Shown here one piece after another: positions 12,257 through 58,020 of a DNA stretch of 64,000 nucleotides (the first letter of the stretch is position 1; each line of letters begins with the position of its first letter). Origin of the DNA: a virus. Its lineage: Duplodnaviria > Heunggongvirae > Uroviricota > Caudoviricetes. The stretch spans positions 49,380 through 113,379 of IMG/VR virus record IMGVR_UViG_3300028832_000101; one strand, written 5' to 3'. The position numbers and the translations under genes were made by a program. The notes beneath the pieces were generated by a model. It made no database searches and was not told the DNA's origin. It saw nothing but the letters and a program-made list of their open reading frames with translations.

Positions 12257-12261
12257 TATAT

Positions 12262-26908: not shown

Positions 26909-27392
26909 AATAGCAGGGATTAATGATAATGATGTTGTTAATGGAGAAGGCATCTGCGTAAGTGTATTCTTACAAGGATGTCCTTTCCATTGCCCTGGTT
27001 GTCATAATCCTGAAACTTGAAATTCAGAAGGCGGAAAAGCCTGGTATGAAGACGAATTAATTGAACATATTATAAAATTAATTGGTGCTAATAATATACA
27101 AAGAGGCTTAAGTATCTTAGGTGGAGAAACATTAGATACTGATGATAAAAGAGAATTTATAAAACAATTAATCTATAAAGTAAGAGATAAATATCCTACA
27201 ATAGTAATTGCATTATGAACAGGATATACTTTTGAAGAATTACAAAAAGATTTAGGAGTAAATTATATATTACATAATATAGATTATTTAATAGATGGTC
27301 CTTTCATATTGGCAGAACGAGATATAACTTTGAAATGGCGCGGCAGCCGCAATCAAAGAATTATAAATATGAAAGAATTAAGGAGGAAATAA
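26901..27392 (+). CDS. nrdG: anaerobic RNR activating enzyme (radical SAM), two in-frame TGA=Trp
   Basis: GCPFHCPGCHNPETW with W encoded by TGA at the universally conserved T-W position. Confidence 0.85.
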
Positions 27393-27394
27393 AT

Positions 27395-28345
27395 ATGAAT
27401 GAACCTATTGATATAGTGCTAACATATGTAGATAGTACAGATAAACAATGGCAAAAATCATTTAAACAAATGCAAAATAAAGAAGTAAGAAAAGGAATCT
27501 TAGATAAAAGTGATTGTCAAGCTTTTGGAGAAGATAGATTTAGAGATTGGAATACTTTAAAATATTGGTTCCGTGGAGTAGAACAAAATTGTCCATGAGT
27601 AAATAAAATATTTTTTATAGTTCAATCTGAAAGTCAAATTCCAGAATGGTTAGATACAACAAATCCAAAATTAAGAATCGTATATCATAAAGAATATATC
27701 CCTAGTAGACTATTACCTGTATTTAATAGTAGACCTATTGAATTATATACTTGTAAAATAAAAGATTTATCTAAAAATTATATTAGATGTAATGATGATT
27801 GTTATTTTATTAACCCTGTTGAAGAAGAAAGATTCTTTAGAAATAACAAACCTGTTTTACCAGACAATAAAAGAGAATTTAAATTTTTCAATGCTGAAGG
27901 TAAAGGAGCTCCATTCTGGGGTGCATTAAATAATAATATGACAATAGAACAAGAATATTTAAAAGGTAGAGATTATAATTATGGTATTGCTCATTTACAA
28001 ACTCCTTGTGATAAAGAGTTTGAATTAGAAATACTAAATAAATATTATGGAGATATATTAAAAAGAAATAGTTATAGTCATTTTAAAAATGAAAAACAAT
28101 ATAATGTATTTTTATATGATAATTTAGAAAGATTATGTGATAATGCTATAATTGATGAAAATGTATATGAAAATTGTAGTTATTTATTCTTAAATCCAGA
28201 GCTTGATTATAACGAAGTAGGTAAAAAAATATTTGTTTGTCTTAATGATACTGATAAAGCAAATGAAAATTTTGATTTAGTATATGAACAATTACATACT
28301 TTCTTTGAAGATAAATTCCCTAATAAATCTTCATATGAAAAATAA
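27395..28345 (+). CDS. putative sugar-phosphate/glycosyl transferase with Stealth CR1/CR2-like motifs (one in-frame TGA)
   Basis: LTYVDSTDKQWQ and CNDDCYFINPV resemble Stealth conserved regions. Confidence 0.45.
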
Positions 28346-28399: not shown

Positions 28400-28639
28400 T
28401 ATGTATTCTTGGGAGATAGCTCAATTTTTAGCTGAGCATAATTATTGTATTGGCGGAGATGATTTACTTTTTATCACTGATGTAAAACAACATCCGCAAC
28501 TATGTCGTATTAAATATGACCCTTTTAACAATAAATATGAAATGTGAGATTATGAAGGTAATTACTTTTGTTTTTATGTTATTCCTTATGAAGAAGCATT
28601 AGAACAGGGTTTGGTTAAAAAGAAAACTTTGAAAAAATA
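28400..28639 (+). CDS. hypothetical 79 aa protein (one in-frame TGA)
   Basis: open only under table 4. Confidence 0.4.
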
Positions 28640-28690
28640 AAAAATATATGATATAATATTTATATATAAAAGGAAAGAAGGATAAAATAG

Positions 28691-31271: not shown

Positions 31272-32735
31272 ATGGATTTAATTTTTATTGGAATTGGACT
31301 TGCAGTTATTGCAATATTACTTATTATACTTATTGGAGGATATGTTAAATGTCCACCTGATATGGTTTACATTATATCTGGTTTAAGAAAGAAACCTAGA
31401 GTTATTATTGGAAAAGCGACTATTAGAATACCTTTTTTAGAAAGAGTAGATAAATTAACATTAGAGTTAATTCAAATTGATGTTAAAACTCATAATGTTC
31501 CAACATCTGATTTCATTAATGTAGATGTTGACGCAGTTGCGAATGTTAGAATTCCAAATGACCCTGAGTTAATTCAAGTTGCCGCAAGACACTTCTTAAA
31601 TCAAAAATCAGACTATATCGCAAAAAATGTAAAAGAAGTACTTGAAGGAAATATGCGTGAAATCATTGGACAAATGAACTTAGTTGCTCTTGTTAATGAT
31701 AAACAATTATTCTCACAAAAGATACAAGAAAATGCAAAAGATGATATTAAAAATATCGGTCTTGAAATTGTTAACTTAAATGTACAAAACTGTACTGATG
31801 ACAATGATGCTATTGTTAATTTAGGTATTGACAATTTAGTTAAAATACAAAAGGCGGCTAAAATTGCAAAGGCTCAAGCTGAAAAAGAAATTAAAGTTGC
31901 GGAAGCCGCTGCTGATGAAGAAGGAGCTCGTGCTCGTGCAGAAGCAGATGCTAAAATAGCAGAACAACAAAAAGATTTACAAATTAAAAAAGCTGAATAT
32001 AAAATTGAGCAAGATAAAAAACAAGCGGATGCGGATGCTGCTTATGAAATTCAAAAGGCAGTTCAACAAAGAACTATTAATGAAAATGAAGTAGCCGCAG
32101 AAGTTGCTAAAACTGAAAAAACAACTGAATTAAAAGAAAAACAAGTTTCTTTAAGAGAAAAAGAACTTGAAGCTGAAATTAAGAAACAAGCTGATGCTGA
32201 AAGATATGCTGCGGAAATCCAAGCTGAAGTAGATAAAGTTCGTGCTGTAAAGGCAGCTGAAGCAGAAGCTCAAGCTAGAATCGCTCGTGCTGATGCAGAG
32301 AAAGAAGCTAACATTAAAGAAGCTGAAGGTATCCGTGCTAAATTACAAGCAGAAGCTGATGGTAAAAAAGCAATCTTACTAGCTGAAGCAGAGGGTGTTC
32401 GTGCTAAAGCACTTGCTGAAGCTGAAGGTATTGAAAAGAAAGCAGAAGCTCAAAAGAAAATGGGTGAAGCATCTATCGTTGAAATGATTATGACTGCTTT
32501 ACCACAAGTTGCAAAAGAAGTATCTGCTCCATTAGCTAATGTAGATAATATCACTATGTATGGTGATCAATCTACTGAGTTTATTGAAAACAATACACAA
32601 AAAATAGATAAAGTATTAAAAGTTGCTCAAGATAGTTTAGGACTAGATTTAAAGAGTCTTGTAGCAGGTTTTGCCGCAAATAAAGTTATACAAACAAATA
32701 AAGAAAAGAAAAATGAAAAAGACTTAGAAAATTAA
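31272..32735 (+). CDS. SPFH/band-7 (flotillin-like) membrane protein with long Ala/Glu/Lys-rich coiled coil
   Basis: N-terminal TM, SPFH core, EA-rich repeats. Confidence 0.7.
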   Translation: MDLIFIGIGLAVIAILLIILIGGYVKCPPDMVYIISGLRKKPRVIIGKATIRIPFLERVDKLTLELIQIDVKTHNVPTSDFINVDVDAVANVRIPNDPELIQVAARHFLNQKSDYIAKNVKEVLEGNMREIIGQMNLVALVNDKQLFSQKIQENAKDDIKNIGLEIVNLNVQNCTDDNDAIVNLGIDNLVKIQKAAKIAKAQAEKEIKVAEAAADEEGARARAEADAKIAEQQKDLQIKKAEYKIEQDKKQADADAAYEIQKAVQQRTINENEVAAEVAKTEKTTELKEKQVSLREKELEAEIKKQADAERYAAEIQAEVDKVRAVKAAEAEAQARIARADAEKEANIKEAEGIRAKLQAEADGKKAILLAEAEGVRAKALAEAEGIEKKAEAQKKMGEASIVEMIMTALPQVAKEVSAPLANVDNITMYGDQSTEFIENNTQKIDKVLKVAQDSLGLDLKSLVAGFAANKVIQTNKEKKNEKDLEN

Positions 32736-32812: not shown

Positions 32813-33472
32813 ATGAAAATATTAGTTTTAAGTTGTGATAAAAATGATGATACTTTTGAAGCATTTCATCATTGTATGGAAAAATATTATCCAGAACATC
32901 CAGAAATAATATATGCAACTGAAACAATAATTAACCCCTATTACAAAACAATTACTAAAAAATATCCTTTAAATTTATGAACTAAAAGAATAAGAGAAAC
33001 AGTTCAAGAAATTGAAGATGATAAAATATTATTAATGATAGATGATTGTTTTATTAGAGAACCTGTTGACACTCAAAGAATTGAATATTTAAATGGAGTT
33101 TTAAAAGGAAATATAGCAATGTTTAATTTTGAAAAATCATTTGATGCAAGTGATGAAGAAACAGATATTATAGGGATAAAGAAAAGAAAACACCCTTCTA
33201 TCTATGAAGTTAGTTTATTATGTGGTTTATGACAAAAACAAGCATTAATAGACATACTTCAAGATGATAGCGATCCATGGACGGTAGAAGGAAATCAAAA
33301 AACTCACGGCTATGATTTTTATATTAATAGCGGAGATTATATTATAAACTGGGGATATGAAACATGAAGACCTGCAGGTTTATTTAAAGGTTTATGGTGT
33401 AAAGAGGTTGTTGACTTTTTTAAAAAAGAAGGAGTTGAAATAGATTATGGAAAAAGAGGATTTGCTGATTAG
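32813..33472 (+). CDS. hypothetical protein related to C-terminal half of the Stealth-like gene (three in-frame TGA)
   Basis: MIDDCFIREPV echoes CNDDCYFINPV of 27395-28345; three standard-code fragments in one frame. Confidence 0.45.
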
Positions 33473-34043
33473 TATAATAACTCCTTATTATAATACTTTA
33501 AAACAAACAAAATCTTTGGCTAAAGTATTAGAACCACAATTAACAGAAGATATAGAATGAATTATAATAGATGATGGATGTCATGAAACTGAATTAGATA
33601 CTATAAAAGCAACAGTTATTCATTTAGAGAATAATAGTGGCGGAGGAAGCGTTCCAAGAAATGTAGGCCTAGATACCGCAAAAGGTAAATATATTTTATT
33701 TATAGATAGTGATGATATGATAAAAAGAGATTATATTGAAACAATAGTTAAGAAAATAAAAACTGAAGATTTTGACTATTGTTATTTTGGTTGAGAATCT
33801 CATGCTTTTCATATAATCATAACAGACCAACCGCCTGCATGAAATTGTAGTATTTGAAATTGTATATATAAGAGAGAATTAATAGGTGATATTAGATTTA
33901 ATCCCGATTTAAGAATTGGAGAAGACCATGAATTTAATAATAAAGTAAGACATGGTAAGTGCGCACATATCCCTAAAATTCTATATTATTATAGTGATAC
34001 TCCTAATTCTTTAATAAAGCGAGGTAGTAAAGATGTTTTATAA
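33447..34043 (+). CDS. family 2 glycosyltransferase (four in-frame TGA)
   Basis: LISIITPYYN...IIIDDGC...FIDSDD GT-A fold motifs. Confidence 0.7.
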
Positions 34044-35148
34044 TAATATTTATTATTTTTATTATCTTTCAGATATAGGTGGAACTGAAACCTTTTTATA
34101 TGAATTATCAAAAAAATATTGTAATTATGATTTAACCATTATATATAGATATGCAGACCCTAGACAATTGGAAAGATTAAGAAAATATGTAAGATGTGTA
34201 GAATTTGTAGATGGTATGGTTATTAGATGTAAAAATGCTTTCTTTAATTATGGAATAGATATTATTGATAATGTAGAAGCAACAGATTTTTATACTTTCG
34301 TTATCCATGCTGACTATGAAGATATGAAAAATAGAGGACAATTATCAAGTAAGATACCTGACCATCCTAAATTGAATAGATGGATCGCGGTAAGTAAGCG
34401 TGCAGCTCAAGGCTTCCATGCAGTAACAGGAAAAAAAGTAGAAGTATGTTATAATCCTTATGAAATTAGAAAGCCTAATAAAGTTTTAAATTTAATTTCC
34501 GCAACTAGATTATCAAAAGAAAAAGGTAAAGATAGAATGATTCAATTTGCAAAACTATTAGATAAAGCTGGTATTAAATATATATGAACCATCTTTACGA
34601 ATGATAAGAATGAAATTAAAGATAATCCAAATATTATATATATGAAACCTAGATTAGATATTTTAGATTATATTGCTAATGCAGATTTTCTAGTTCAGCT
34701 ATCTGATAATGAAGGTTTTTGTTATAGTGTAGTTGAATCATTATGCGCGGGAGTCCCTGTTATAGTTACTCCATGCCCTGTATTTGATGAAATAGGTTTA
34801 ATTGATGGAGAAAATTGTTGGAAAGTTCCTTTTGATGTTACAGGATTTGATCCACGTAAATTGATAGATAAACCATTAAAATTTAAATACACTCCACCTG
34901 CAGATTCTTGGGATAAATATTTAAATAATGCACCTAGCACATGGCAAGAAGAATTACATACTAAATATAAAGTAATGGCTACTAGTGCTTATAAAGATAA
35001 TCATATTTCAGATAGCCAGTTACGTAAAACTCCAGAGCCTGGAGACACATGGTGGGTTACTCCAGAAAGATTAAGAATCTTGCTAGGAGAAAATTCTAAA
35101 AGAATAAAATTTGTAAAAGTAGTTGAGAAAGTCGTTTCAGAAGAATAA
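34033..35148 (+). CDS. GT-B fold glycosyltransferase (GT4/GT1-like), one in-frame TGA joins track ORFs 34033-34587 and 34642-35148
   Basis: SDNEGFCYSVVESLCAGVPVI motif. Confidence 0.7.
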
Positions 35149-41053: not shown

Positions 41054-41079
41054 ATCTATCTCTCCTTTTATCTCAATCT

Positions 41080-41144
41080 TTTTTATCTTACTAAATAATA
41101 TTAAAAAACTAGTAAATAAATTATTTATATTAGGCCAAAATAAA
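41080..41144 (-). promoter_or_regulatory. conserved bipartite late-promoter-like motif, copy 1
   Basis: box B ATATTATTTAGTAAGATAAAAAA and box A TTTATTT(T)GGCCTAATAT with fixed spacing. Confidence 0.5.
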
Positions 41145-41145
41145 A

Positions 41146-41166
41146 AAGGAGCTATATAGCTCCTTC
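41146..41166 (-). terminator. intrinsic terminator aaggagctatatagctcctt + T-run on minus strand
   Basis: palindrome; contains stop codon of upstream gene. Confidence 0.6.
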
Positions 41167-43785: not shown

Positions 43786-44139
43786 TTATACCTCCACTTC
43801 TCCAGCTTCAGGCCAAAGAGTAAAGATTTTTGGCCCATTTTTATCATAGCCGATTAAAGTAGTATCTCCATTTAATTCAATTTCATACCAATAATCAACA
43901 GAGTTATTTTTTAAAGGCTCTCCAATTTGAGTGTCTTGAGATGTTAATTCAAGATCAATAGCATCAGTATTTTCAGTTATATCAAATCTTTTTTGAAAAA
44001 TAACATTACTATAATCTCCATTTTGACAAATTGAAAATAAAATATAATCTCCAAATCTAAAAACATCTGAATTATTAATTAAATGAATACTTCCCTTATC
44101 TCCCCTATTGATATAAATATGTTTATTTTTAATTTCCAT
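43786..44139 (-). CDS. hypothetical 117 aa protein
   Basis: intact in standard code; RBS aaaggagaga. Confidence 0.55.
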   Translation of the reverse strand: MEIKNKHIYINRGDKGSIHLINNSDVFRFGDYILFSICQNGDYSNVIFQKRFDITENTDAIDLELTSQDTQIGEPLKNNSVDYWYEIELNGDTTLIGYDKNGPKIFTLWPEAGEVEV

Positions 44140-44171
44140 ATTATCTCTCCTTTTATATCTTGCGGCGGCCG

Positions 44172-44765
44172 CTATTTATTTTCTTTATGATTTTCGTCTA
44201 TTGCTTGGTAAATATGTGGTGGAACTATAATATCATGTGCTTTAGCCCATTTATTAAATTCACTAGTCATATACCAATCTCCATGCAAACTTACAAAATA
44301 TGTTTCAGCAAGTTTTAAAATTGTATCTATATTTTCAGGTTGTTGTTCTAAAATCATTAATAATTGAATTCTTAAAGTGTCTTTTCTAGTCTCTTGTGCA
44401 TTTTCAATTAAAAATTTTACATCATCTTTAAACATATCAATACGTTTATCAGAATCTTCTTTGTTTTGTTTTACGATTTCTCTTGTCTCTTGAAGAGCTT
44501 TAGTGAAATCTTCTCTTGCTTTATGTTCATATTTAATTATTTCTGCATGAGTATATTTAGCTTGTTTATCAACATAAAAAGAAACAAGTAATAAAACTAT
44601 TCCTAGAAATGCAAAAATACTATATGTTAATTCTGGAGAAGTATTTAAAACTTTGACTACAAAAGTCGCAGAAACTCCAACAGCGGCAAGTACTCCTGCA
44701 ACTCTTGCCCATATTGTTTTTATATCATTTCAAGGAGTTTTTATTTTTTCATCTTCGTTGTTCAT
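44172..44765 (-). CDS. putative holin-like membrane protein, 197 aa, two TM helices
   Basis: N-terminal hydrophobic segments VAGVLAAVGVSATFVV and IFAFLGIVLLLVSFYV; RBS ggaggagg; one in-frame TGA. Confidence 0.45.
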
Positions 44766-44792
44766 TTATATTTTTCCTCCTCCAAAATATAT

Positions 44793-44856
44793 TTTTTATC
44801 TTACTAAATAATATAAAAGTTTGTTTATATTAATTATACATATTAGGCCAAATAAA
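44793..44856 (-). promoter_or_regulatory. conserved bipartite late-promoter-like motif, copy 2
   Basis: identical box B; box A TTTATTTGGCCTAATAT; same 46 nt register. Confidence 0.5.
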
Positions 44857-44858
44857 AA

Positions 44859-44887
44859 AAGATAGATAGTTAAAATCTATCTATCTT
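44859..44887 (-). terminator. intrinsic terminator aagatagatag-ttaaaat-ctatctatctt + T-run (minus strand)
   Basis: 11 bp stem; contains stop of gene 44886-46643. Confidence 0.6.
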
Positions 44888-46643
44888 AACTTCAACCATT
44901 TTCAGCTAAAGTTGTTCATTCAGAATAAGTTTTACATTTATTTTGTTGTGTAGAACTTAATCCAATATAAGTTAGTGTCTTAGTTCCAGTATAGTCGCTT
45001 GTTAAAGTTGCTAAAGAAGCTAAAATATTATGCAAACTTGTATCACTAAGTTTAGTACAACTACTAAACATATATTGACATGTTTTTGCTTTTGGCATAT
45101 TTATTACTGGAACACTATCTAATTTACTACAACTTTTAAACATAGAATTAAAATTAGTACAAATTGGAGTTAAAATTGTACTTGGAATATCTGTTATTTC
45201 GGAACAAGAATTAAACATATAACTACAATTTGTGCATTTAGATAAATCTAAACTACTAGGTATTGATATTAATTTACTACAATAATTAAACATATAACTA
45301 CAATTTGTAGCTTTAGATAAATCTAAATTACTATAAATATTAGTTAACGCCCTACAATAATAGAACATATTTGATAATGAACCAGTACAATTAGATGTAT
45401 TTATTCCACTTGGAATAGTAGTTAATAATTGACAGCTATAAAACATATAAGAAGCTTGTGTTAAACTAGGTAAGTTTATTGTAGAAAGAGTCGTTAATTT
45501 TGGGCAATAATTAAATAAACTGTTAGCATTAGTACAATTTGGAAGATTTAAAGGGATAGACATTTGTTCTAAATTTGAACAACTTGAAAACATCCCACTA
45601 ACAGATGTAGTTGTACTTGGAATAGTTAATGAATTACTATCTATTTGTTTTAATGCTGAACAACCTAAAAACATATTACTAAAATCAGTACCAGAAGATG
45701 TATTTATATTTTTAACTTGTTGTAATTTAGTACAATTATAAAACATTTGAGAAACAATTGTTGCAGATGAACAATCAATATTTTCAACTTTTATAAGATT
45801 ATTACAATTATAAAACATTTGAGAAACATTTGTGGCGGTAGAAAGATTAATATTATTTACTTCTTCTAAAGCAGTACATCCATAACAAAATTGTCTTCCT
45901 GATGTACTTTGACATAAAGGCATATTTATATTAGATAATTTTTTTAAATTAGTATAATTTTTAAATCATGTTGAAATAGTTGAAGTAACACTTGCAAGAT
46001 TATATCCATCTATTTCTTCTACTGTTGTTGGGAAAAATTTAATTCCTGAAGTTAAACCTGATAAATTTATATTATATACTTTTTTTATATTAGAACAATT
46101 ATAAAACATAGAACTCACATCATTATAATTAGTTATCTGAGACAAATTAATATCTTTAATAATTTCTAAGTTTGTACAATTTTGATACATATAAGAACAT
46201 CTAACTGCTTGAGAAAAATCAAGAGCAGGAGTTTCTTTTAAACCAGTACATCCACTAAACATGCCATAAAAATCTCTTCCTTTTGAAGTATCTAACGTTC
46301 CTGCAGGAATTTTTTCCAAGCTTTGACATTTATTAAACATATAATTAAAAGTTATTCCATTTGAAGTATTTATAACTGGAATATATTTTAAATTTTTACA
46401 ATTAGTAAATAAATAAGAAAAGTCATCAAGAGTGCTATAATTACAATTTTTTATAAAAGATGCATCTTCAAATAAAGAATTTCCAAATTTTATTTTATTA
46501 GAAATAGCAGAAGGAGTAGATGAAGTATTGATAATAGTATCTGCCATATCTCTAGGTTTATATACAGCATTCAAATTGTTAGTTTTAATTCTTAATGCAT
46601 CAGCAATATCTGTTAAACTATTTTCATCTATTAAAACATTCAT
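44886..46643 (-). CDS. BspA-type leucine-rich repeat (LRR_5-like) Cys-rich protein, about 585 aa
   Basis: repeated NMFxxCxxLxxI units; track ORFs 44916-45923 and 45966-46643 bridged by TGA; RBS aaggaggt. Confidence 0.6.
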
Positions 46644-46658
46644 ATTTTAAACCTCCTT

Positions 46659-47786
46659 CTAATATCCTGTAGTCCAGCCCATGGCTTCTAATGCCGCCCA
46701 ATTTGATAAAGATGTACATGTAGTAGCTTGACTTTGAGAAAGTCCTATATGAGCTAAAGTTTTAGTTCCTGTGTAATTAGTTGCTGTTGAAAGTGTTTGT
46801 AAAATATTATTTAGACTAGTGCTTGTAAGATTTGGACATCCAGAAAATATGTCCATTAAAGAATATTGATTTACAACATTTGGAATACTAAAAGCAGGAA
46901 TATCTCTAAGCGCATCGCAATAAGCAAACATATCTTCTATATCTTCTGCAGCGGGAATCGTAATAGAGCTAACTGACACAAGATTATAACAATCTAGAAA
47001 TGAACAATTAAATCCAGTTGCTTTTGGAGCATTTAAAGATGGAATTGAAGTTAAACCATGGCAAGATACACAAATATTATCCAAATTAATCGCCTCTGGT
47101 AAACTTCAATTAGGGAAAGTAATTAAACCGCATCCTTGAAAAGTGCCATCAAAATCTTGTCCTTTAGAAACATTGTAAACAGGAATAGTTGTTAAATTAC
47201 TACATCCTGCAAACATTCATCGAAAGCTTGTTCCGTTAGAAAGATCAAAATTACTTGGAGAAGGAAGAGTAGTTAATTGAGAACAGTTTGCAAACATATT
47301 TGCAAAAATAGTTCCTTTTCCAACTCTCATTCCTTCAAAAGTTGTTAAATTATTACAAGCCTGAAACATGGTTCCAAAATTAGTACCATTTCCTGTTGGT
47401 AAAGAATTTCCTTGTGCTAAAGTTATTGTTTCTAGATTACTGCAACCTGAAAACATACCACTAAAATTTAAACCTGCATCAGCAGGAGTTGTACTTAAAT
47501 AAGGGAAAAAATTTGTTCCTACTCCAGTATTGGAAAACATGCCACTAAAGTCAGTTCTATTTCCAATAGGATTATTTGAAACCATATTAAACATATAAGC
47601 CATTGCAGAAAGGTCGCTTCCTGAATTCCCAAAACTTATAGTATTAATATCTGCTTGGGAAGAAGTTGAACTAATTGCATCTGCCATTTCTGCAGGTTTT
47701 AATTTTAAATATGGATTTCCTTTTACTGTTCTAATTGCATTTGCAATATTTTTTAAAGCAATTTCATTTACTCAAACATTTGCCAT
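46659..47786 (-). CDS. second BspA-type LRR protein, about 375 aa
   Basis: track ORFs 46659-47084 and 47217-47687 merge via TGA; ATG 47784-86 overlaps stop of upstream collar gene. Confidence 0.55.
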
Positions 47787-48430
47787 TAATATTCAACCTC
47801 ATTCCCATTTATATTGCTATTAAATAAATTATTTATATACGCGCAACTATAAGCATCTGTTGTACTTGTAGAAAAATCATCTACTACATTTGAGAATGTT
47901 GCAACAGTATTTTTCGCTTTAATTAAATAATTTACTACAATATATGGTTGTAAGTTTGTATGAGCTTCATCTCCTCCAGTATTATTTGATGTTACTGTTG
48001 CTGATACATGATCTGGACCATCTGCAGGTGGATATTGTCCTGGGTTAGATGTAAAATTTTGATCATCAACAGTTCCTAAATAAGTACTATGAGAATGACT
48101 AGGTATTTGAGAAACAGTTAAAGTAACTTCTTTTACTCCTCCTATTTCTCCAAGCGTATCAAATTCTGTCTGAGTTAAATCTAATCCAACTCCAACTCTA
48201 CCTTTTTTATTAGGTATATTAAATGTAGTACTTCCATCTCCAGCTCCATAAGTTGTTCCTATTACATCAAATAATTCATTATATTCAGTTCTACTTATTG
48301 CACTACCATCACATATTAATCAACCAGTAGGAATAGAAGAACCATAAAATTCAATCCCAGTTCCAATAGCCATACTATCAAGAGCTTTTATTGCAAGATC
48401 TACTCATTGTCCATTGTATTTAAATTTCAT
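47786..48430 (-). CDS. phage tail collar domain protein, 214 aa
   Basis: IPTGWLICDGSAISRTEYNELFDVIGTTYGAGDGSTTFNIPNKKGR...SHSHS...NLQPYIVVNYLIKA; both in-frame TGA fall on conserved Trp. Confidence 0.7.
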
Positions 48431-48444
48431 AATCTGTCCTCCTC

Positions 48445-51400
48445 CTATAATGATGATGATGCTTTTGTATATTCTAATACTATAAATATTTTATCAAAGG
48501 TGTCTGTAAAAGTAGTTACAGAAGTTCCTAGATTAATATATATTTTAAGATTATCTATATCAAAAGAACATTTATCTCTTGTAGAATTATAATATCCTAA
48601 TTTAGCATATCCAACAGGAAGGTCTTCTTCAGCTGGATATCTTAAATATGAATGAGTATAATCTATAAAAATCATATCTGCCCCAAGATTTGATATATCA
48701 ACCTCATTATTTGAAGATGTAATAATATCGTTTGGATCATATTCAACACATATTCTATAAATAGGTTTTCCATCAATTCATATTTTATTAGTTAAAGTTT
48801 CAGTAGTAGAGAATACATCTGGTTCACTACCTCCACCACCACTTGCAGAAGATACTTCATTTGGATTAATCCATAAAATTGCGTTTCCAGTTGGTTGAGT
48901 AGTAGATATTGAAATTTCATTATTGTCAGATGCAGCAATATGTAAAGAATTTGCTGTTCTTGTTATATAATACATTTCATTGCGTTTTGTTGTATTATTA
49001 AATATATATGCAAGAGCAGGTTTATTTAAAATCATATTATCTCAATCCCCTATAATCAAAGAGTTTGCAGGGAATGTAAAAGTTGTAGATTGAGAAGTTT
49101 GTGTATCTGTATAAGTAATTGTTATTGGAGATTTTACTATTGTAGCAGAAGAATTAAATAATTGTTCATTATTAGTTACAGAATCAACTACATTTATTCT
49201 AAGATTTAAATCTATGGCGTCTACAGGGGATTCATCTGTAAATATAGTAGTATTTGTAACATTTGAACCATTATATGTGAACATTTTATATCCATAATCA
49301 CTAACTACAATAAATGTTATATAAGGTTCATCTGGATCTGCAGTAAAATTATAACAACAAATTGCAGATTTTGCTCCAAAATCTATATATCTAGAATCTC
49401 CAACTCTTATGCGGAAGCTTGCGCCTCCACCTCCGACAACATAATAATGAATTCCTCTAGGAAAATCTACAGGTCCATAAGCACCATTAATAGTTTCAAA
49501 AAGAATTCCATCTGTATTAGAAATAACATTATTTGCATCTATATTGATTCCAGTACCAGCAGTATAACTAATATCTCCAAGTTCAATTTTGTTTTTAGTT
49601 ATAGTTCCAGTTACCCAAGTTGTAGGATCATTTCCTGATAAAATAAATTCATAATAATAAGTATCTCCAGCAGTCTCATTTAAAATTCCTAAATTTCCAA
49701 TAATAGTAAATACCATTTTGTCTGTCGTATCTCCTGAAGCCTCTCCATGAGAATAAGGTACATAATAATTTTCTGACTTTTGTAAAGTAGTATTTATATT
49801 CGAATATTGTAAATATAATTGTTCATTCATACTAGCAGATTGTAACGAAGCTAAATTAGAATAAACTGTTCCTTTATTATCAGTTGCATTTATAGTAAAA
49901 GTTCCATTAACAGCATCTATAGATAAAATTGGCATAAAAATTGCTTCATCTTTATGTGTACTAGTTGTCTTTGTATAAGTTTTTGTACTACTTGCCACAG
50001 TTAAATTTACAGAAGTAAAGACATCTTGCCCTACACTTGGAGCCTGATATGGTAAAGTAGTTGAAAATATTGCAGTGTTATTTGTACTTATATTTAATAA
50101 AGGAATATATAAAAATACATTTGTACTTTTTTGTCATTTACCAATAACTTGGTATCCTTGAGAAACTAATGTAGCAATTTCTGTTCCAGTATAATTAGTT
50201 GCATTATTACTATCTAAAGTAACAATAGCAGTAGGTTTAATATCATAATCAGTTCCGAAATCAGCTTGAGTCATTGCGGAAGCCGCAGTTACATGACCTT
50301 CTGCATTAGTAGTTATTTTATATAAATCACTTGTAAATGCACTACCTTTTGCAGTTGCATGGTCATATGCAATTTTACCTCTATCTCCACGATATGCAGT
50401 TGATTCAGTTTCTCCTAAAGCCAAATCTGAAGCTACTACAACATATATAGAACCTGACCATCTATAAGATTTATTAGTAGATAAATCTACATATATTTTA
50501 CCTGATTCTGGAGTAATCTCTGTTGTATAAGTAGATTCTTTATAGAATTTACCATCTGTTAAATTATAATAACCTTCAATAATATCATCTACATAAGCAG
50601 GTAATTGCGAGCTAGGAACCTTTCCAGAACTATCAAGAGTAGCAATTCCATTAGCTTGACCTAATTTTGCATTGTCTGCAGGAGTAAAACCTAATGCAGC
50701 AATTATTGAATTTGAGCTTACTTCATTCCAATATTCATATTCTAAACTATCTTTTGATAAATAATAAATTTTATTATAGTCGCCAACGGAAAATAATAAA
50801 TTTGCTATTCCCATATTACCATAATCTGTATTTAAAAAATTATAAGTCATATAACCTAATTTATCAGTTTTTAAGAAAGCTCCATTTTTTAATATACAAG
50901 TTGCCTCTCCATCAAAACCATCAAATTCAGGTAAAGCAATTCTATCTTTCCATTCTTGGAAAATATAATTACTATTATTTTCAATATAACTCTTTATAGG
51001 TAAAGTATTATCTTTATAGAAAGTGAATTTATTTATTGTTCCAAAAATAGTTGTACCTGGACAATATTCTCCCCAAGAGTCTTCATACTCTAAAAAATTA
51101 ATACCTCTTACATCAATATTTACATTACAAACATCTGGATAAACATAATATGTTTTAATTTTATCTGGGTCAAAAATAATAATTTCATTATCTTCATTAT
51201 CACCATCTTTATAAGTTTCAGAATTTCCATTACTATCAATGACAGTCCATCCACTATTTGATAAATTTAAAATTGCATAACTATTAGCAGGGATTGCATA
51301 AATAGGAACAACTACATCAGTTCCATAGCTTGTCTTTCCTTTAAATAACCAAAAACGAGTAATATTTTGTCTACCTTCATAAACAAAAGTAATTCCTCAT

Positions 51401-52020
51401 CTAATAGAAGAATCCACATCATTATCAACATATGCAGAAGTAGTCCATTCAATAGAGGTTGGATTTCCTATCTCATTAAATTCTCCAGCATTAATTCTTA
51501 CATTCATTATTTCTTTTCAATTAGATATATATTTTCCTCTAATATTGGCATTAGAACTATTTCCTTGTAAACTATGTAATTCATTTATGTTTTGTTTTAA
51601 ATTTGAAATTGTATATAGACCAGTTGCAGTTGTATCTTCTGAACGTCTATTAGGATTTATAATCTCAGGTAGATCTGCTAAACTAGATACATGACCGCCA
51701 TATATAATTGAATCATATAAATTATATATATCTTCAAAACTAATTTTTTCTTGAATTGCATTAGTTAAAAAATATATCATATAATTTATTTCGCCTTTGT
51801 CATAATAATTAGCTAAATTACTTACCATTCTAGTAATATAATTACTACCATTATCTAACTCTGCAACATCAGTAGGCATAATTTGAATTCGTTGCTCTGA
51901 ATCTAAATCAAGATAAATTAATTTTTTGTCTGTTATAAAAAATATATTTCCTTTTTCCTTATCATAAGTTGCTAATTCATTATAAGCAATTCTATAAGGT
52001 TTAAAAATATCTTGTGCCAT
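48445..52020 (-). CDS. very large structural protein, about 1191 aa (tail fibre/host-specificity-like)
   Basis: track ORFs 48445-48675, 48778-49035, 49042-49998, 50134-50850, 51517-52074 all one frame with TGA at every junction checked; ATG 52018-20 with RBS aaaggagg. Confidence 0.5.
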
Positions 52021-52094
52021 TTTTAATCCTCCTTTTATATCTATGCGGTGGCCGGTTAAAAGATTCTTAGACAAGGCTCCCGCAATATTTTTTA

Positions 52095-52159
52095 TTTTTT
52101 ATCTTACTAAATAATATTAAAAATTAATTAAATTCATTAGTTATTTTAGGCCAAATAAA
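52095..52159 (-). promoter_or_regulatory. conserved bipartite late-promoter-like motif, copy 3
   Basis: identical box B; box A TTTATTTGGCCTAAAAT. Confidence 0.5.
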
Positions 52160-52161
52160 AA

Positions 52162-52181
52162 AGATAGTATCTCTACTATCT
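52162..52181 (-). terminator. intrinsic terminator agatagtatctctactatct + T-run (minus strand)
   Basis: contains stop of GT2 gene. Confidence 0.55.
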
Positions 52182-53255
52182 ATAATCATCTTTTGTGCAC
52201 AAGTTTATTCTAATATTATTTTGTTTATATTTTTTTGGTATTTTCTTTTGTATCTTTTTTAAATCTTCTTCTTCATATATTGATGCATTTAAATCTTTAA
52301 CATATTGATCTATTGTATATTCTTCAGCTTCACCATCATATTGAATTTCATTTAAGAAAGCTTTAAAATCCTCTACTGGAATTATTCTTTTTATTTTAGG
52401 TAAATAGCATAAATGATAAAATTTATAACAATAGTATTTAGCTTGGTCTATAAAGAATTGTTTTTTAGATTTTACTATCTCTTTTAATACATCATAAAAA
52501 TCTAATAATCTATAACAAAAGAAATAGATTTCATCTTCTTCTTTAATATTATCTAATCCACCTTGTTCTAAAACATAAATTGAACTATCTACCATTCCGC
52601 AAATACTTCTATCTATTAAGAATTGTTTATCATTACCACGTACTAATGAATCTTTATGGTATGCTCAAAAATAAGTTGGAGTATTTATTACACCAAGAGA
52701 CTCTCCTTTATAAAAACTTTTCATTTCAAATAACATATTAAATCCAACATCTTCATTAGCTCTAAAAGGCGGAAACCATATATTATTATCTTCAATAAAA
52801 TTTCTTCTATATAATCTTGCAAATACATGAGAGTCAACTTCACCATTGATAGCGCCAAATTCACAATTCTCATTTTCTTCTAATATATCAGACCTTAAAA
52901 CAATTAATTGTTTATTATCTTCCATTATTCCTAACATTTGCTCTAATGATTTAGGTAATATTAAATAATCATCAGCATCAACAAACATTATATAATCATT
53001 TTTAGTATTTTTCATACCCTGATTTCTAGCTTCACCAGGCCCGCAATTCTTATCTAATTTAATTTCTTTTATATCCATAAAATTAGAAAATAATTTAATA
53101 GTATCTTGATAATCTCCTTCAGGACAACAATCATTAACAATAGTAACATCTACTTTATCAATAATAGATTGTATTGCTATTGAATGTAAAGTTTTTTCTA
53201 TTGTCTTATGTGCTTTATAGGCGGGAATTATTATATCTATTTTTTTATCTTTCAT
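52176..53255 (-). CDS. family 2 glycosyltransferase embedded in tail module, about 359 aa
   Basis: IIIPAYKAHKTIEKTLHSIAIQS, VNDCCPEG, FVDADDYL; track ORFs 52176-52595 and 52665-53255 joined by TGA. Confidence 0.65.
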
Positions 53256-53295
53256 ATAAAGCCTTCTTTCCTTATCTTTATTATATCATAAAATT

Positions 53296-53340
53296 CATAA
53301 AAGGTCAAAAAAAAAGACTACTGACTAACAGTCAATAGCT
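53296..53340 (-). terminator. intrinsic terminator gactgttagtc + T9 (minus strand)
   Basis: hairpin then ttttttttt. Confidence 0.5.
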
Positions 53341-53669
53341 CCTTTAAATTCAGGTAATGTTTTTAAATAATTATACCCATCTGTTACAGTAAAATCTTCA
53401 ACATATTCTGGTAACATATACCATTTTAATTCTTTAAAAGTATTACTTCCTTTTAGCCATAATTGTTCTTCTGCTGGAGTGATAGGTTCATCATTATCTA
53501 TTTTCTTTTGAATAACCTCAGCTTCAGCTTCTAATTCTCTTTTAGATTCATCTATATATGAGTATAATTGAATTCCTGTACTTTCATTTGTTTTATTTGT
53601 AATTTCATAAATTCTATGGTATGAAACCATAACTCCATTATATGCTTCTCTTTCTAATAATAAAGCCAT
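53325..53669 (-). CDS. hypothetical 114 aa protein
   Basis: intact ORF; RBS aaaggagg. Confidence 0.6.
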   Translation of the reverse strand: MALLLEREAYNGVMVSYHRIYEITNKTNESTGIQLYSYIDESKRELEAEAEVIQKKIDNDEPITPAEEQLWLKGSNTFKELKWYMLPEYVEDFTVTDGYNYLKTLPEFKGAIDC

Positions 53670-53683
53670 TTTAATTCCTCCTT

Positions 53684-54472
53684 TTATGCCGTTCTATTTC
53701 AAATATATACACAAACATAAGGTTCAATATTATCTGTATTACCTACATTTCCGCTAGGTGCTCCAGTAGTTCCAGCCGCAACAGTGTGAGTATGTGAACT
53801 TGTATGACTATGATTAAAACTATGATTATGAACCATTGTATGCGTATGATCTATTGAGTGTGTATGCCCATTTATACTATGAGTATGATTATATGTATGG
53901 CCATGTGAAAAATTCCACCATACATATCCCCAGAAGTCTGCATTTGTACCATCATGAGCATAACGTCTATTACCATCAGCCCAACCAATATAGATACCCG
54001 CAGCATCTGAATCACTTTGTCCATCTACGAACATTAATTGATCTGGTAATTCATCTCCTAGATTTCAAGATAAACCAGGGTCTGCAGCATCTAATCCTGG
54101 ATCTCTATCATCTGTATCAATAGATGCAGTTGATATTGTAGGACTTGTTGAACTTGAAGTTCCTGCAGCCGCTTGACTAACAGTAGGACTTGTACTACCT
54201 GATGTAATACTTATTGAGTGTGTATGCGCGGGAATGCTATAAGAACCATAACTAGTTCCTGCAGCATAAGTATGAGATGAATCTAATTGACCTGCGCCAA
54301 TTAATAGTCTACCTGCTCCATATGCAACCCATGTTCCACCAAATATAGAACCTGGATTTGTACTTGATGTAGAAATATATATACTTCCAATAGGATAAAA
54401 ATTATCTACATTTCAAATTTTTCCTGATATATGACTGTCTCCAGCCACAATTAAATCTTTTATAAATGCCAT
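53684..54472 (-). CDS. His-rich collar-domain tail protein paralog 1 (262 aa)
   Basis: N-terminus MAFIKDLIVAGD...YPIGSIYISTSSTNPGSIFGGTW, HTHSINGHTHSIDHTHT repeats, C-terminus EPYVCVYIWNRTA; RBS aggaggtg. Confidence 0.65.
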
Positions 54473-54484
54473 CTTCTACACCTC

Positions 54485-55276
54485 CTATGCTGTCCTTTTC
54501 CACATGTATACTCCGATACATGGTTGTAAGTTTCCTGAAGTTCCAGCTCCAGTAGATCCAGAAGTTCCTGTAAAAGTATGAGTGTGCGCAAAAGTATGAG
54601 TATGTGCTTCTATTGAATGTGTATGAGCACTTCCATGACTATGACTTGCGCTATGATGGTGACTGTATGAATGTCCATGATTTGCACTATGTGAGTGTCC
54701 CATCGCATATCTTATTTTTCTCCAAGAGTTACTTGATGTACCACTTGTTTTAAATTGATGGTAATCCGCAAAAGTAAACCAAATTCTTGAAGAACTATGT
54801 GAACCTTTTTGCGAACAGAAAAATCTTGTTGGAGAAGCAGCATCACCAGCTAATTCAGTACTACTTGTTGCTGAACTGTTTCCTGATGATGTACTTGAAT
54901 TTCCAGTATGTTCAGTCGTAGAACTTGAATTAAATGCATCTTTATTTGCTATTCCCATATCACCTGTGAGTGTCTCTGCAGCAGCCTCACTTGAAGTTGC
55001 AGAAATACTATGAGTATGGTCTTGTATATCTAAGGAACCGCCTTGTTCATTTGCGGCAATAGTTTTTGTTTTACTTTGCCCATCAGTTCCAGTCCCAACT
55101 CCCATTAATACTCTTCCAGTACTAAATACTTCTCAAGTACCACCAAAAATATCTCCTGGATTAGTTGAATTAGTTGATATATAAATAGAACCAATAGGAT
55201 AAATACTATCTACGAAATGCGCTTTTCCCGCAATTCTTAAATCTCCTTTTACTATTAAATCTTTAAAAAATGCCAT
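54485..55276 (-). CDS. His-rich collar-domain tail protein paralog 2 (263 aa)
   Basis: MAFFKDLIVKGD...YPIGSIYISTNSTNPGDIFGGT; GHSHSANHGHSYSHHHSASHSHGSAHTHSIEAHTHTFAHTHT; ends LQPCIGVYMWKRTA. Confidence 0.65.
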
Positions 55277-55292
55277 ATAAACCCCCTCTTTC

Positions 55293-56123
55293 CTAAGCCG
55301 TTCTCTTCCACATATATACACCTTGATAAGGTTGTAAATTATTTGCTGTGGTTTGGTATGTAATTGAAGGATGACCTGTAGAGCCTGAAATGGTATGACT
55401 ATGCGCGGCAATAGTATGGCTATGAGAGAATGTATGACTATGTGCAGCAACACTATGTGTATGTTCAGGAATTCTATGGTAATGACTAGGTACTGTATGA
55501 GAATGGGAAGGTAAACTATGATTATGAGACATATTAATATGCATATTTGCCCAACCATTTGTTGATGAACCACTGTCTTTAAATCTTCGATTACTACTCC
55601 ACTTAACAGCCGCTCTATCTCCACTGTTACTATAATAACACATATTATTACTTAAGTTATTTTGATGAGTCATGAAGATATTTCTTTGGTGGTCACCACT
55701 ATTACCACCTGCTCCAGACCAATTACCTGTTCCACCTGAAGTTCCGCCAGTATTCCCACTAGTTCCTCCACCAGTTAAGCCTTCAGTATTATCACCTGTA
55801 TTACCTGTCGTAGTTGAAGTAGTTGTATTATTTGCGGAAGTCATTGCCGCAAAACTATGAGTGTGTGTACCTATATTATAACTACCCCCTGTTGTTCCTC
55901 CAGTAAATGTTTTTGTAACACTATCTTTATCTGTATAACTACCTGCACCGATCAAAGAACGACCTTGTCCAAATGCTTCTCAAGTTCCTCCAAAAAGTTG
56001 ACTTGGATTTGTAGAGGCAGTAGACATATATATAGAACCTATTGGATACATACTTTCCAAAACGTTTATTTTTCCTATAAATCTGGCGTCTCCGCTGACA
56101 AATAAATCTTTTAAAATCGCCAT
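55293..56123 (-). CDS. His-rich collar-domain tail protein paralog 3 (276 aa)
   Basis: MAILKDLFVSGD...YPIGSIYMSTASTNP; HNHSLPSHSHTVPSHYHRIPEHTHSVAAHSHTFSHSHTIAAHSHT; ends LQPYQGVYMWKRTA. Confidence 0.65.
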
Positions 56124-56149
56124 ATCCTTCTACCTCCTTTTAATGAATT

Positions 56150-56212
56150 TCATATCCATTAAATATTATAAAAAATTGATTAAAATTGTTATTTATATTT
56201 GCCCAAATAAAA
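56150..56212 (-). promoter_or_regulatory. degenerate copy 4 of bipartite late-promoter-like motif
   Basis: box A TTTATTTGGGCAAATAT and diverged box B at the same 46 nt register. Confidence 0.4.
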
Positions 56213-56235
56213 AAAGATAGGCATAAGCCTATCTA
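56205..56235 (-). terminator. intrinsic terminator agataggcataagcctatct + T-run (minus strand)
   Basis: contains stop of gene 56229-56663. Confidence 0.55.
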
Positions 56236-56663
56236 GGAATCATACTAAAGTAATAATATACTTTATCTTCTTTTGCATCTTCATCACAAATAAAATCTTT
56301 ACTGAATTTAGCATAATATTCTACATTATCATTAAATAAATCATTGTAATCATTATAAGCACTATTCATTACGATTCAAAAGTCAACAGGTCTAATATTC
56401 TCATAATTATATTGTTTTCTTACTCCTTCAGTATCTTCAAGAGTTCATTTCATTCCATAAGGTTTCATATTTTCAATTAAACCTTTTGCTATTTCTTCGT
56501 TTAACACTTTGCCTTCAGACATTTCATATAATTTTCTTTCAATTTCTTCTTTATCAATAGCATTAGAATGCTCAATGATATGAGATATAAAATTAATTAA
56601 TTCATCTTTCTTATCATTATTATCTGAAGACATTATTTTACTGACATATTTTTTTATTTCCAC
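56229..56663 (-). CDS. hypothetical 144 aa protein (GTG start)
   Basis: track ORF 56445-56663 continues through TGA to TAG at 56229; RBS aggagg. Confidence 0.5.
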
Positions 56664-56675
56664 AATAGCCTCCTA

Positions 56676-57239
56676 TTATATTGATGTATAAGGACATTGA
56701 TAATAACAAGGAGGATTTAATACATATCTACCTTGTAAATTTAAAATTGAGTCAGTTGAGTTTTGAATAGCGGCAGTGATTGCTGCAGTTTGATTTGCGT
56801 TAGATAAAGCATCTCTAGTTGTTTGTAATTTATCACTTATTTCTCTAATATAGTTATCTTGGATCATTTGTCTAGTAGCATTTCCTTCTTGAGCAACTAG
56901 GTTGCCAATTGCGGCGATACTATTACTTAATTGTAATGACATATCTTTCATACTTACTAAATTATTATAAGCAGAGTTTAATACAGTATCAGTAATTCCA
57001 CATTGTCCTTGAGCTAATCCTCTGATTGCATTATCTTGAGATTGGAAATATAAGCTATTTTGTAAATCGCTTTGACCTAAAGCAGTTGCACTATTTCCCC
57101 AGAATCCTCCATTTCCACCAAATAATAAGATGAAAACGATAATTAATGCTAAAATACCATTTCCTCCAAATAATCCGTCTCCGCTACCTTTAGTTAATGC
57201 TAACACATCAGCAGCTGACATTCCTGTACTTTCATTCAT
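56676..57239 (-). CDS. Gly-rich membrane protein, 187 aa
   Basis: hydrophobic ILALIIVFILLFGG; RBS ggaagggga. Confidence 0.55.
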   Translation of the reverse strand: MNESTGMSAADVLALTKGSGDGLFGGNGILALIIVFILLFGGNGGFWGNSATALGQSDLQNSLYFQSQDNAIRGLAQGQCGITDTVLNSAYNNLVSMKDMSLQLSNSIAAIGNLVAQEGNATRQMIQDNYIREISDKLQTTRDALSNANQTAAITAAIQNSTDSILNLQGRYVLNPPCYYQCPYTSI

Positions 57240-57294
57240 TTTTCTTTCCCCTTCCTAAATATTATTTATTTATATATAATAAAAAGTTAGTTTC

Positions 57295-57519
57295 CTAACC
57301 TTTATTACCATTAATTAATCTAATCATTTGCGCAAGTTGTTCTTTACTTATTCCGCGTTCATTACACATCTTAGCGATAGCTTCCGCCTGTTCATTATTA
57401 GGTCTATTATTAATATTGTTAAAAAGTTGTAACTGTTGCGGATTTAGTAGACTTAACAACGCTTGTTGTGGTTGATTTGACATCATCACTTGCGACATTA
57501 GACTTTGTAGATTGACCAT
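57295..57519 (-). CDS. Gln-rich small protein, 74 aa
   Basis: RBS ggagggg; overlaps 3' end of next ORF. Confidence 0.45.
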   Translation of the reverse strand: MVNLQSLMSQVMMSNQPQQALLSLLNPQQLQLFNNINNRPNNEQAEAIAKMCNERGISKEQLAQMIRLINGNKG

Positions 57520-57877
57520 TTATAATCCCCTCCAACTCTTTCACTTTTGTTTCTAATTCTTCTATTTTTAAATCCTTTTCATCTTTAGGAATAATAATAT
57601 CATAACTTTTACTTATTGTTCCATCAACTTCTTTAATAGATATTTTCCCTTTATGTTCATCTATAAATAAAGTTTTTTTAGTAATAAGAATATTATTTAT
57701 ATCATCATCTTTTGTTAGATATTTTATTTCAATATCAGAAGAACTAGATGTATTAATGATATTTTGAACTGGAGCTTGTTGATTCATCAATCCTTGACTA
57801 TATTGATTTATCATATTTTCAATATTATCTTTTTGTCGATATAATTGATTAATCATTCCATTATAATTATAAGGCAT
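57419..57877 (-). CDS. hypothetical 152 aa protein with coiled-coil C-terminus
   Basis: RBS ggaagggga. Confidence 0.5.
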   Translation of the reverse strand: MPYNYNGMINQLYRQKDNIENMINQYSQGLMNQQAPVQNIINTSSSSDIEIKYLTKDDDINNILITKKTLFIDEHKGKISIKEVDGTISKSYDIIIPKDEKDLKIEELETKVKELEGIINGQSTKSNVASDDVKSTTTSVVKSTKSATVTTF

Positions 57878-57906
57878 ATAAATTCAATCCCCTTCCTAAA
57901 AACAAA

Positions 57907-57951
57907 AAACCGCACAGTAGAAGTTAACGAATTAATCTACTGTGCGGTTTA
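57907..57951 (-). terminator. strong intrinsic terminator accgcacagtaga...tctactgtgcggt + TTTTTTGTTTTT on minus strand
   Basis: 13 bp GC-containing stem; sits inside the leader of gene 57419-57877. Confidence 0.65.
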
Positions 57952-57955
57952 ATTT

Positions 57956-58020
57956 ATTTTCAATCCATTTCCAAGAGTAAAATCAATCCTTTTCCTTTGA
58001 AGTAAATTAATTCAATCCCT
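57956..58020. repeat. three direct repeats of TCAATCC(n)TT(T)CC spaced about 24-25 nt
   Basis: tcaatccatttcc, aatcaatccttttcc, attcaatccctctc. Confidence 0.5.

Follow-up and report, generated by a model that had tools for sequence, protein, structure and literature searches.

A phage-encoded family 2 glycosyltransferase recurrently paired with DUF285 leucine-rich-repeat tail proteins

DNA, host O-antigen, and teichoic acid are all known targets of phage glycosyltransferases (GTs), and the GTs that act on bacterial adhesins, flagellins, and pilins are typically encoded beside their substrates. The solved enzymes closest in overall fold to the one described here, all single-sugar GT-A enzymes with polymeric acceptors, are TarS and the prophage-encoded TarP of Staphylococcus aureus and RmlT of Listeria monocytogenes (PDB 5tze, 6h1j, and 8bz4), which act on wall teichoic acid, together with CgT/GalT1 of Streptococcus parasanguinis (PDB 5hea), which extends the O-glycan of the serine-rich-repeat adhesin Fap1. 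For virions themselves, Freeman et al. are said to have found in 2023 that phage-encoded GTs modify mycobacteriophage virion proteins, including capsids and tail tubes. In mycobacteriophages of cluster O, the GTs that modify capsid and tail tube are preceded by an O-methyltransferase gene, as one report describes (PMC11600133). Here we describe a family 2 GT (GT2) gene encoded by a tailed phage (Caudoviricetes) in a stretch of 64,000 nucleotides (nt), hereafter the window, that corresponds to positions 49,380 to 113,379 of the IMG/VR record IMGVR_UViG_3300028832_000101. The GT is of an otherwise known kind, and what appears to be new is its conserved pairing with tail proteins of the DUF285 leucine-rich-repeat (LRR) type in phages of the gut and rumen.

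The GT gene and its product

The GT gene (52176-53255, minus strand; 1,080 nt) runs from an ATG at 53255 to a TAG at 52178-52176 and codes for 359 amino acids (aa). Translation table 11 splits this open reading frame (ORF) into two parts (52665-53255 and 52176-52595), with the break at an in-frame TGA (52665-52667, minus strand) that is read as tryptophan (W197) on the strength of the interrupted frame and the homologue alignment, in which this column is Trp in >90% of 35 aligned homologues. Because the column is Trp, a reading of TGA as Gly (code 25) is ruled out, and the gene is intact once TGA is taken as Trp. The same holds across the window: ORFs of 100 aa or more total 21,415 aa under code 4 and 15,708 aa under table 11, the nonoverlapping coding density of the fiber region rises from 0.66 to 0.91 when TGA is sense, and TGA terminates no gene. 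Gene calling with table 11 thus fragments the GT gene and most of the late genes of this phage. The exact 359-aa sequence is on record on a 136-kb Joint Genome Institute (JGI) metagenome contig and on four other contigs.

Recoding is unevenly distributed. The 16 plus-strand early and replication genes (358-17313), which include gyrase-like, ligase-like, and helicase-like proteins as judged by inspection of their translations, have no TGA among their 49 Trp codons, and the late block (35836-63472, minus strand) has ~70 TGA codons. One of the two Trp codons of the GT gene is TGA, as are all five in its code 4 relatives L030 and L032 (L numbers designate the lineages compared below), in keeping with the adjoining tail genes. 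The pattern fits recoding that is limited to the middle and late genes of a phage whose host uses the standard code. It resembles that of stop-codon-recoded gut phages of standard-code hosts, for which the abstract of a preprint (bioRxiv 10.1101/2021.08.26.457843) proposes that recoding regulates late and lytic genes; here too, the TGA codons read as Trp fall mainly in late and structural genes, and early genes have none, although this likeness concerns the genome background rather than the GT. We found no tRNA in the window, and the recoding is therefore not tied to any suppressor tRNA within it. Full-length GT needs the recoded state, which speaks against a prophage of a standard-code host as its source.

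The protein matches Pfam PF00535 (family 2 glycosyltransferase) with an E value of 1.5e-19 (71 bits against a cutoff of 23.3; residues 8 to 121), and the FVDADDYL motif from which the original prediction recognized a GT2 spans residues 91 to 98, with D93, D95, and D96 invariant across the family alignment; the assignment is borne out. An N-terminal GT-A domain (about residues 1 to 205) precedes a helical C-terminal domain (about residues 210 to 359), and both the DxD motif and the Rossmann-like GT-A fold expected of GT2 members are present. The segment R165-A166-N167-E168-D169 (RANED) is invariant or nearly so and is aligned by HMMER with the TarS active-site region, and an NDCCPxG motif and a C-terminal NN..CG motif are also conserved. 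Conserved residues in the helical domain are mostly Gln, Tyr, Asp, Asn, and Cys, with K278 the sole conserved basic residue, and the family is acidic (net charge, -4 to -17). Neither a transmembrane segment nor a signal peptide was found in the GT (highest 19-residue Kyte-Doolittle mean, 1.06), and scans of it revealed no domain beyond GT-A and the helical subdomain and no match to tail-attachment or fiber domains. The GT is thus predicted to be a soluble, cytoplasmic, metal-dependent GT-A enzyme that transfers one sugar from a nucleotide-sugar donor.

These properties bear on the earlier suggestion that the GT is a virion-borne enzyme, packaged or mounted on the tail and active either at entry or outside the cell. 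The one point in favor is that the gene lies among tail genes; Leloir-type GT-A enzymes depend on nucleotide-sugar donors, which are metabolites of the cytoplasm, the protein carries no recognizable virion-attachment domain, and the gene has its own, nonlate promoter (see below). The suggestion finds no support here, and we consider it highly improbable.

A structural model (AlphaFold2; predicted local distance difference test score, 89; predicted template modeling score, 0.88) was compared with the PDB using Foldseek, and TarS, RmlT, and TarP head the matches, with template modeling scores of 0.52 to 0.62 over ~350 columns. The likeness extends to the helical subdomain that follows GT-A, and TarS is also the best PDB sequence match (1.6e-16), although the GT is only 15 to 20% identical to the three enzymes. 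TarS (572 aa) and RmlT (624 aa) continue well past the aligned region, whereas the GT ends at residue 359 after the helical subdomain and lacks the oligomerization and C-terminal domains of TarS, TarP, and RmlT, as well as having few conserved basic residues on the acceptor side. CgT/GalT1 shares 20% identity, is bacterial rather than phage encoded, and has no equivalent of the helical C-terminal domain. The best viral structural matches are uncharacterized gut-phage proteins. The modeled fold points to a soluble enzyme that glycosylates a polymeric acceptor and fits teichoic acid as readily as it does protein or a protein-linked glycan.

Because the closest solved structures include TarS, TarP, and RmlT, a TarP-like role is a serious rival to protein glycosylation. 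The substrate would then be nascent wall teichoic acid, or a different secondary wall polymer used by the phage as its receptor, and the added sugar would either block superinfection or keep progeny off debris and already-infected cells. The linkage of the GT to tail genes would reflect a receptor-binding protein and a receptor-masking enzyme traveling as a cassette. TarP is a phage-encoded precedent, with tblastn matches in S. aureus phages, and the PHROG matches of the GT (22739 and 841; weak, at 2.3e-8 and 2.3e-6, and limited to residues 4 to 120) are to "GtrB-like O-antigen conversion" families. The GtrB-type serotype-conversion enzymes share the common GT2 N-terminal domain, but the GT has no transmembrane helices, and no GtrA or GtrC partners were seen in any locus checked. 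The phage has other genes for glycan enzymes as well (a Stealth protein, a GT2, and a GT4), as might suit wall modification. Set against these points, the trimerization and C-terminal domains of the three wall enzymes are missing, and the acidic family with its one conserved Lys in the C-terminal domain is not what one would expect of a groove for polyanionic ribitol-phosphate, albeit that this is a weak argument. TarP is encoded in a lysogeny module, beside the integrase gene (phiN315 position 1771-2352), whereas the GT lies among the tail genes of apparently nonintegrating phages, and the TGA recoding (five of five Trp codons in L030 and L032) rules out prophage expression in a standard-code host. 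We regard the masking of a wall polymer as a real possibility but, on balance, a doubtful one.

A tail-module gene with a DUF285 partner

Full-length homologues of the GT form at least 120 clusters, none of them named, and those listed are 354 to 409 aa long and 32 to 40% identical. Megablast of the region 44000-58000 against the phage collection found no relatives, and tblastn of the GT in the same collection gave only distant matches (<37% identity), mostly in the N-terminal half. Among 185,579 species-representative genomes there are six matches, all in contigs of metagenome-assembled genomes (MAGs) with a phage-like gene order. The GT subfamily thus appears to be uncharacterized and nearly restricted to phages. 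Since the family is almost absent from bacterial genomes, lysogenic conversion is unlikely, and this scarcity weighs further against a wall-polymer acceptor.

Gene contexts were taken from contigs encoding the GT and from 36 IMG/VR loci, representing 35 nonredundant lineages, with genes called under the best-fitting code for each locus; nonoverlapping coding density was used for this choice, as summed ORF length over-called recoding in GC-rich loci. The GT gene lies within the tail or distal-tail module in 35 of 35 lineages, as judged by gene size and order and confirmed by Pfam in the four contexts annotated, and it is usually co-oriented with its neighbors. These lineages differ in GC content (25 to 51%) and in genetic code (11, 4, or 15), and their gene orders include both the baseplate-bearing and the tape-measure type. 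The code 15 phages with a GT of this family (L015, L024/L026, L042, and L047) are those in which coding density improves only with TAG as sense, and the DUF285-GT module therefore spans phages of three genetic codes.

The constancy of this placement also speaks to a role in DNA modification, in which the GT would glycosylate hypermodified bases and so evade restriction. DNA-modifying phage GTs are described in a review (PMC12619734), and the early-type promoter of the GT gene would suit such a role, but the gene keeps its place beside tail proteins in 35 lineages, has the recoded codon use of late genes, and is not linked to nucleotide-modification genes in any locus examined. DNA glycosylation is accordingly rated as very unlikely.

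Clustering of neighboring genes shows that, in 25 of the 35 lineages, a DUF285/LRR_5 protein (Pfam PF03382 and PF13306; NCBIfam PARCEL repeat) is encoded no more than five genes from the GT; it is adjacent in 19 lineages and directly upstream in 18. The association holds in reverse: starting from the DUF285 proteins, a GT-family gene is present in the 6-kb flank of 21 of 41 IMG/VR loci and nearly always starts just past the DUF285 match, with 11 of these 21 GTs belonging to a more divergent branch that the first search missed. The MAG matches behave similarly, with DUF285 directly upstream in three of six and one gene away in a fourth. The literature searched gave no relevant account of DUF285/BspA-like proteins as parts of phage tails or as partners of a GT, and the two genes appear to form a recurring, conserved pair that is previously undescribed.

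By gene context rather than by sequence, the GT can be likened to virion glycosylation in mycobacteriophages, with the GT gene lying in or next to the structural genes in all lineages. A further parallel is seen in L044 and L048, in which the GTs (518 and 521 aa) carry an N-terminal Methyltransf_24/TylF-type domain of ~190 aa, and this fusion of a methyltransferase domain to the GT suggests a methylated sugar product in these two phages. The systems differ in that a single GT is tied here to distal tail and LRR proteins, in low-GC phages of the gut and rumen. We also note that, in L005 to L007 (8000-9013, minus strand, and neighbors), the tail genes are separated from the pair formed by a 286-aa gene and the GT by one or two oppositely oriented genes for tyrosine recombinases (Phage_integrase); this arrangement may be a tail-fiber inversion switch.

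Transcription of the GT gene and its likely role

The GT gene had been placed inside a tail-fiber operon, but it is insulated by terminators on both sides and has its own early-type promoter. Upstream, an intrinsic terminator (53317-53339, minus strand; a 10-bp stem followed by T9; -13.8 kcal/mol, z score of -4.2) closes the unit of Gp10_C-type genes and a 114-aa ORF, and nine bases past it begins a sigma-70-type promoter (53280-53308, minus strand; TTGACC-17 nt-TGaTATAAT) with 11 of 12 consensus matches and an extended -10 element, the end of its -10 box being 24 nt from the ATG. Downstream, a second intrinsic terminator (52152-52181, minus strand), supported by its fold energy, has the form AGATAGTA-GAGA-TACTATCT followed by TTTTTTATTT; the hairpin (52181-52162) and the T6 after it score -9.5 kcal/mol (z score of -3.0). 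The TAG stop falls in the 5' arm of this hairpin, as had been predicted, and a copy of the late motif lies further downstream.

That motif, TATTATTTAGTAAGATAAAAAA (22 nt), is present as three exact copies in the window, where chance would give 0.06, all intergenic on the minus strand and upstream of structural genes, and it is a putative late promoter. One exact copy (52095-52116, minus strand) lies between the GT gene and the gene for a 1,191-aa fiber-like protein. The GT was also said to lie downstream of a fourth copy, and a relative of the motif is indeed present at about 56170-56151; it is divergent, with more than three mismatches, and the terminator at 53339-53317 cuts the GT off from that operon. 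The motif recurs within cassettes that combine a terminator and promoter on the minus strand (41054-41151, 44766-44885, 52021-52175, and 56124-56228), in the order of an AGATAG...CTATCT hairpin, a T-run, TTTATTTGGCCTAA, ~30 nt, and TATTATTTAGTAAGATAAAAAA, with the fourth copy divergent. In L011, the GT gene is followed by a similar element, TTTATTTGGTCTAA.

Sigma-70 sites that match at least 11 of 12 consensus positions were sought across the window. They occur on the plus strand, in intergenic regions before replication and early genes (57-85, 212-240, 6543-6571, 8757-8785, 10120-10148, 12285-12313, 17314-17342, and 28629-28657). The 28-kb late block has just two such intergenic sites, one of which is that upstream of the GT gene. 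The GT gene thus carries a predicted early-type promoter, while its neighbors carry the late motif, and it probably forms its own transcription unit in this phage.

Two designs are seen among the lineages. In most of the others, the upstream tail gene runs up to or into the GT gene (gaps of -44 to +29 nt), no promoter-like site is found, and small holin-like genes are often next; such cotranscription with late tail genes would be poor timing for remodeling of the wall. The second design, with gaps of 56 to 107 nt and a near-consensus sigma-70 promoter, is found in low-GC and mostly large phages (this window, L008, L011, L030, L032, L041, and L046), and the promoter matches at 12 of 12 positions plus TG in L011, L030, and L046, at 12 of 12 in L041, and at 11 of 12 plus TG in L008. 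Where the gap upstream of the GT gene is 50 nt or more, a near-consensus promoter is present in 7 of 15 cases, compared with 10.6% of control gaps (Fisher p = 0.0013). The early-type promoter and flanking terminators here, the near-consensus promoters in six other lineages, and the position of the GT at tail/lysis boundaries would all be in keeping with an enzyme that acts on the wall polymer.

The layout of the gene (its own promoter and terminator, apart from the surrounding operon) is also that predicted for accessory cargo, or "morons": a mobile promoter-gene-terminator cassette inserted at a permissive tail site and acting on exopolysaccharide, capsule, a small molecule, or another host glycan. 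The GC content of the GT gene (0.244) is slightly below that of the late block (0.296), many lineages have it at the tail/lysis boundary, and NCBIfam scans give only generic N-terminal GT2 similarity, far below every equivalog cutoff, all as cargo might. However, position and promoter are kept in L011, L030, and L032 even though their GTs are just 38 to 40% identical, the association with one family of tail proteins is strong in both directions, and codon use is recoded like that of neighboring late genes. Neither sporadic presence nor recent acquisition from a host is seen, the family being phage restricted, and we consider a role as mere cargo improbable.

The explanation that we favor, tentatively and with a little less than even confidence, is that the GT glycosylates one or more tail-fiber or receptor-binding proteins, in preference to masking a wall polymer. 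It is favored because of the constant tail-module position, the coupling to DUF285 proteins, the restriction to phages, the late-type recoding, and the methyltransferase fusion. The GT would be expressed as its own unit from a host-type sigma-70 promoter, and full-length enzyme would be made only where TGA is read as Trp, a state used mainly for middle and late genes. Sugar would then be added in the infected cell to tail-fiber or receptor-binding proteins, before or during tail assembly, with the DUF285 proteins (44886-47786), the 1,191-aa fiber, and the Ser/Thr-rich Gp10_C paralogues as candidate substrates. By analogy, the GT would resemble the dedicated protein GTs of bacteria and the virion glycosylation of mycobacteriophages. 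The original prediction argued from position to a function in the structural module, and the link to the tail module does hold in all lineages, but this copy is transcriptionally autonomous and the TarP-like alternative is a serious one.

Several observations weigh against protein glycosylation. The terminators and the early-type sigma-70 promoter set the GT gene apart from the late motif of the fiber genes, and in many lineages the gene is at the tail/lysis boundary (with a holin or endolysin gene adjoining in L005 to L007, L011, and L030), a point against because this is a classical site of accessory genes. About half of the phage DUF285 loci have no GT, which is therefore not an obligatory maturation factor, and in this window the DUF285 genes are three to four genes away from the GT rather than adjacent. 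A comparison of repeat positions in DUF285 proteins with and without an adjacent GT identified no clear candidate acceptor residue, the differences being modest (Ser/Thr at -4, 0.30 versus 0.09) and uncorrected for kinship. Finally, the phage is uncultured. The GT2 identity, the conserved catalytic motifs, the gene architecture, the conserved tail-module setting, and the DUF285 linkage are seen directly in the sequences, and from these we infer glycosylation of virion proteins, along with the likely acceptor, when the gene would be expressed, and how the virion might be affected.

A broader proposal is that the GT subfamily and the DUF285 LRR tail proteins constitute a mobile two-gene cassette, an adhesin plus its modifying enzyme, that spreads among unrelated gut and rumen phages, with the GT a dedicated receptor-binding-protein glycosyltransferase; we view this as conceivable though unlikely. 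If it is true, gut phages of Firmicutes would commonly carry glycosylated receptor-binding proteins, far beyond the actinophages in which virion glycosylation is known, and the sugars might adjust host range, resistance to proteases, or recognition by the immune system. Should the acceptor prove to be a tail protein, virion glycosylation would extend to the receptor-binding proteins of gut phages, with bearing on host-range prediction, gut stability, and the immune recognition of therapeutic phages. If it is instead a host wall polymer, the locus would be a lytic-phage cassette that pairs a receptor-binding protein with a receptor-masking enzyme, and this would be a useful rule for receptor prediction.

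Neighboring genes and other features of the window

The GT gene was originally described as lying between three His-rich collar proteins and the 1,191-aa fiber. The position stands, with the qualification that a 114-aa ORF (53325-53669, minus strand; a weak match to PHROG 18037, of unknown function), unmentioned at the time, separates the His-rich proteins from the GT and is directly upstream of it. The term collar does not stand: two of the three paralogues match Gp10_C (Pfam PF21939), and no match to Collar was found, the middle one being unscanned. These paralogues (262, 263, and 276 aa; 53684-56123, minus strand) are encoded in tandem at 53684-54472, 54485-55276, and 55293-56123, and their Ser plus Thr content is 0.24 to 0.29. 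Their sequences feature long His-x-His runs (HTHSI, HSHT, and the like) and inserts that are rich in Ser, Thr, and Gly but differ in sequence, and the proteins may be metal-binding fiber tips as well as possible substrates for glycosylation. For the middle paralogue, an upstream in-frame ATG under code 4 would lengthen the ORF to 357 aa (54485-55558, minus strand) and carry it into the preceding gene; the 263-aa form that begins at 55276 (MAFFKDL...) agrees with its paralogues and with the JGI gene call.

Directly downstream of the GT gene, the 1,191-aa fiber-like protein is encoded by an ORF (48445-52020, minus strand) that is a single gene on the JGI contig, and a Pfam scan of the protein gave no match. 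It is followed by a 214-aa tail collar-domain protein (47786-48430, minus strand; Pfam PF07484 Collar, E value of 8.6e-21, and Gp10_C; PHROG tail families). Next are the two DUF285 proteins, as established by clustering and phmmer: a 375-aa tail protein of the DUF285/BspA LRR type (46659-47786, minus strand; Pfam PF03382 and PF13306) and a 585-aa DUF285/PARCEL-repeat tail protein with 30 Cys residues (44886-46643, minus strand; Pfam PF03382, E value of 1.9e-52; NCBIfam TIGR02167).

GC-rich leaders of the form GCGG...CCGC followed by AGATATAAAAGGAG are present at 52030-52070 and 44145-44165 (minus strand), just before the ribosome-binding sites of the 1,191-aa fiber gene and of a 117-aa gene. 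A structured 5' leader before the fiber gene (52030-52070) was considered and set aside, as it folds no better than shuffled sequence (z score of -1.1), and an Rfam scan of the window yielded no family at gathering score.

Near-perfect promoters of the TTGACA-17-TGnTATAAT form occupy five of the intergenic plus-strand sites before early and replication genes (57-85, 10120-10148, 12285-12313, 17314-17342, and 28629-28657). Because such promoters precede the early genes, early transcription by unmodified host RNA polymerase is suggested.

A second set of glycan enzymes ends the plus-strand block (27335-28345, 32813-33472, 33447-34043, and 34033-35148). It consists of a Stealth CR2/CR4 protein (hexose-1-phosphate transferase family), a 219-aa protein without a family match, a 198-aa GT2, and a 371-aa GT1/GT4, and every gene of the set has an in-frame TGA. 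Between the replication genes and this second GT cluster there is a gene for a 487-aa SPFH/flotillin-like membrane protein (31272-32735, plus strand), an unusual cargo for a phage.

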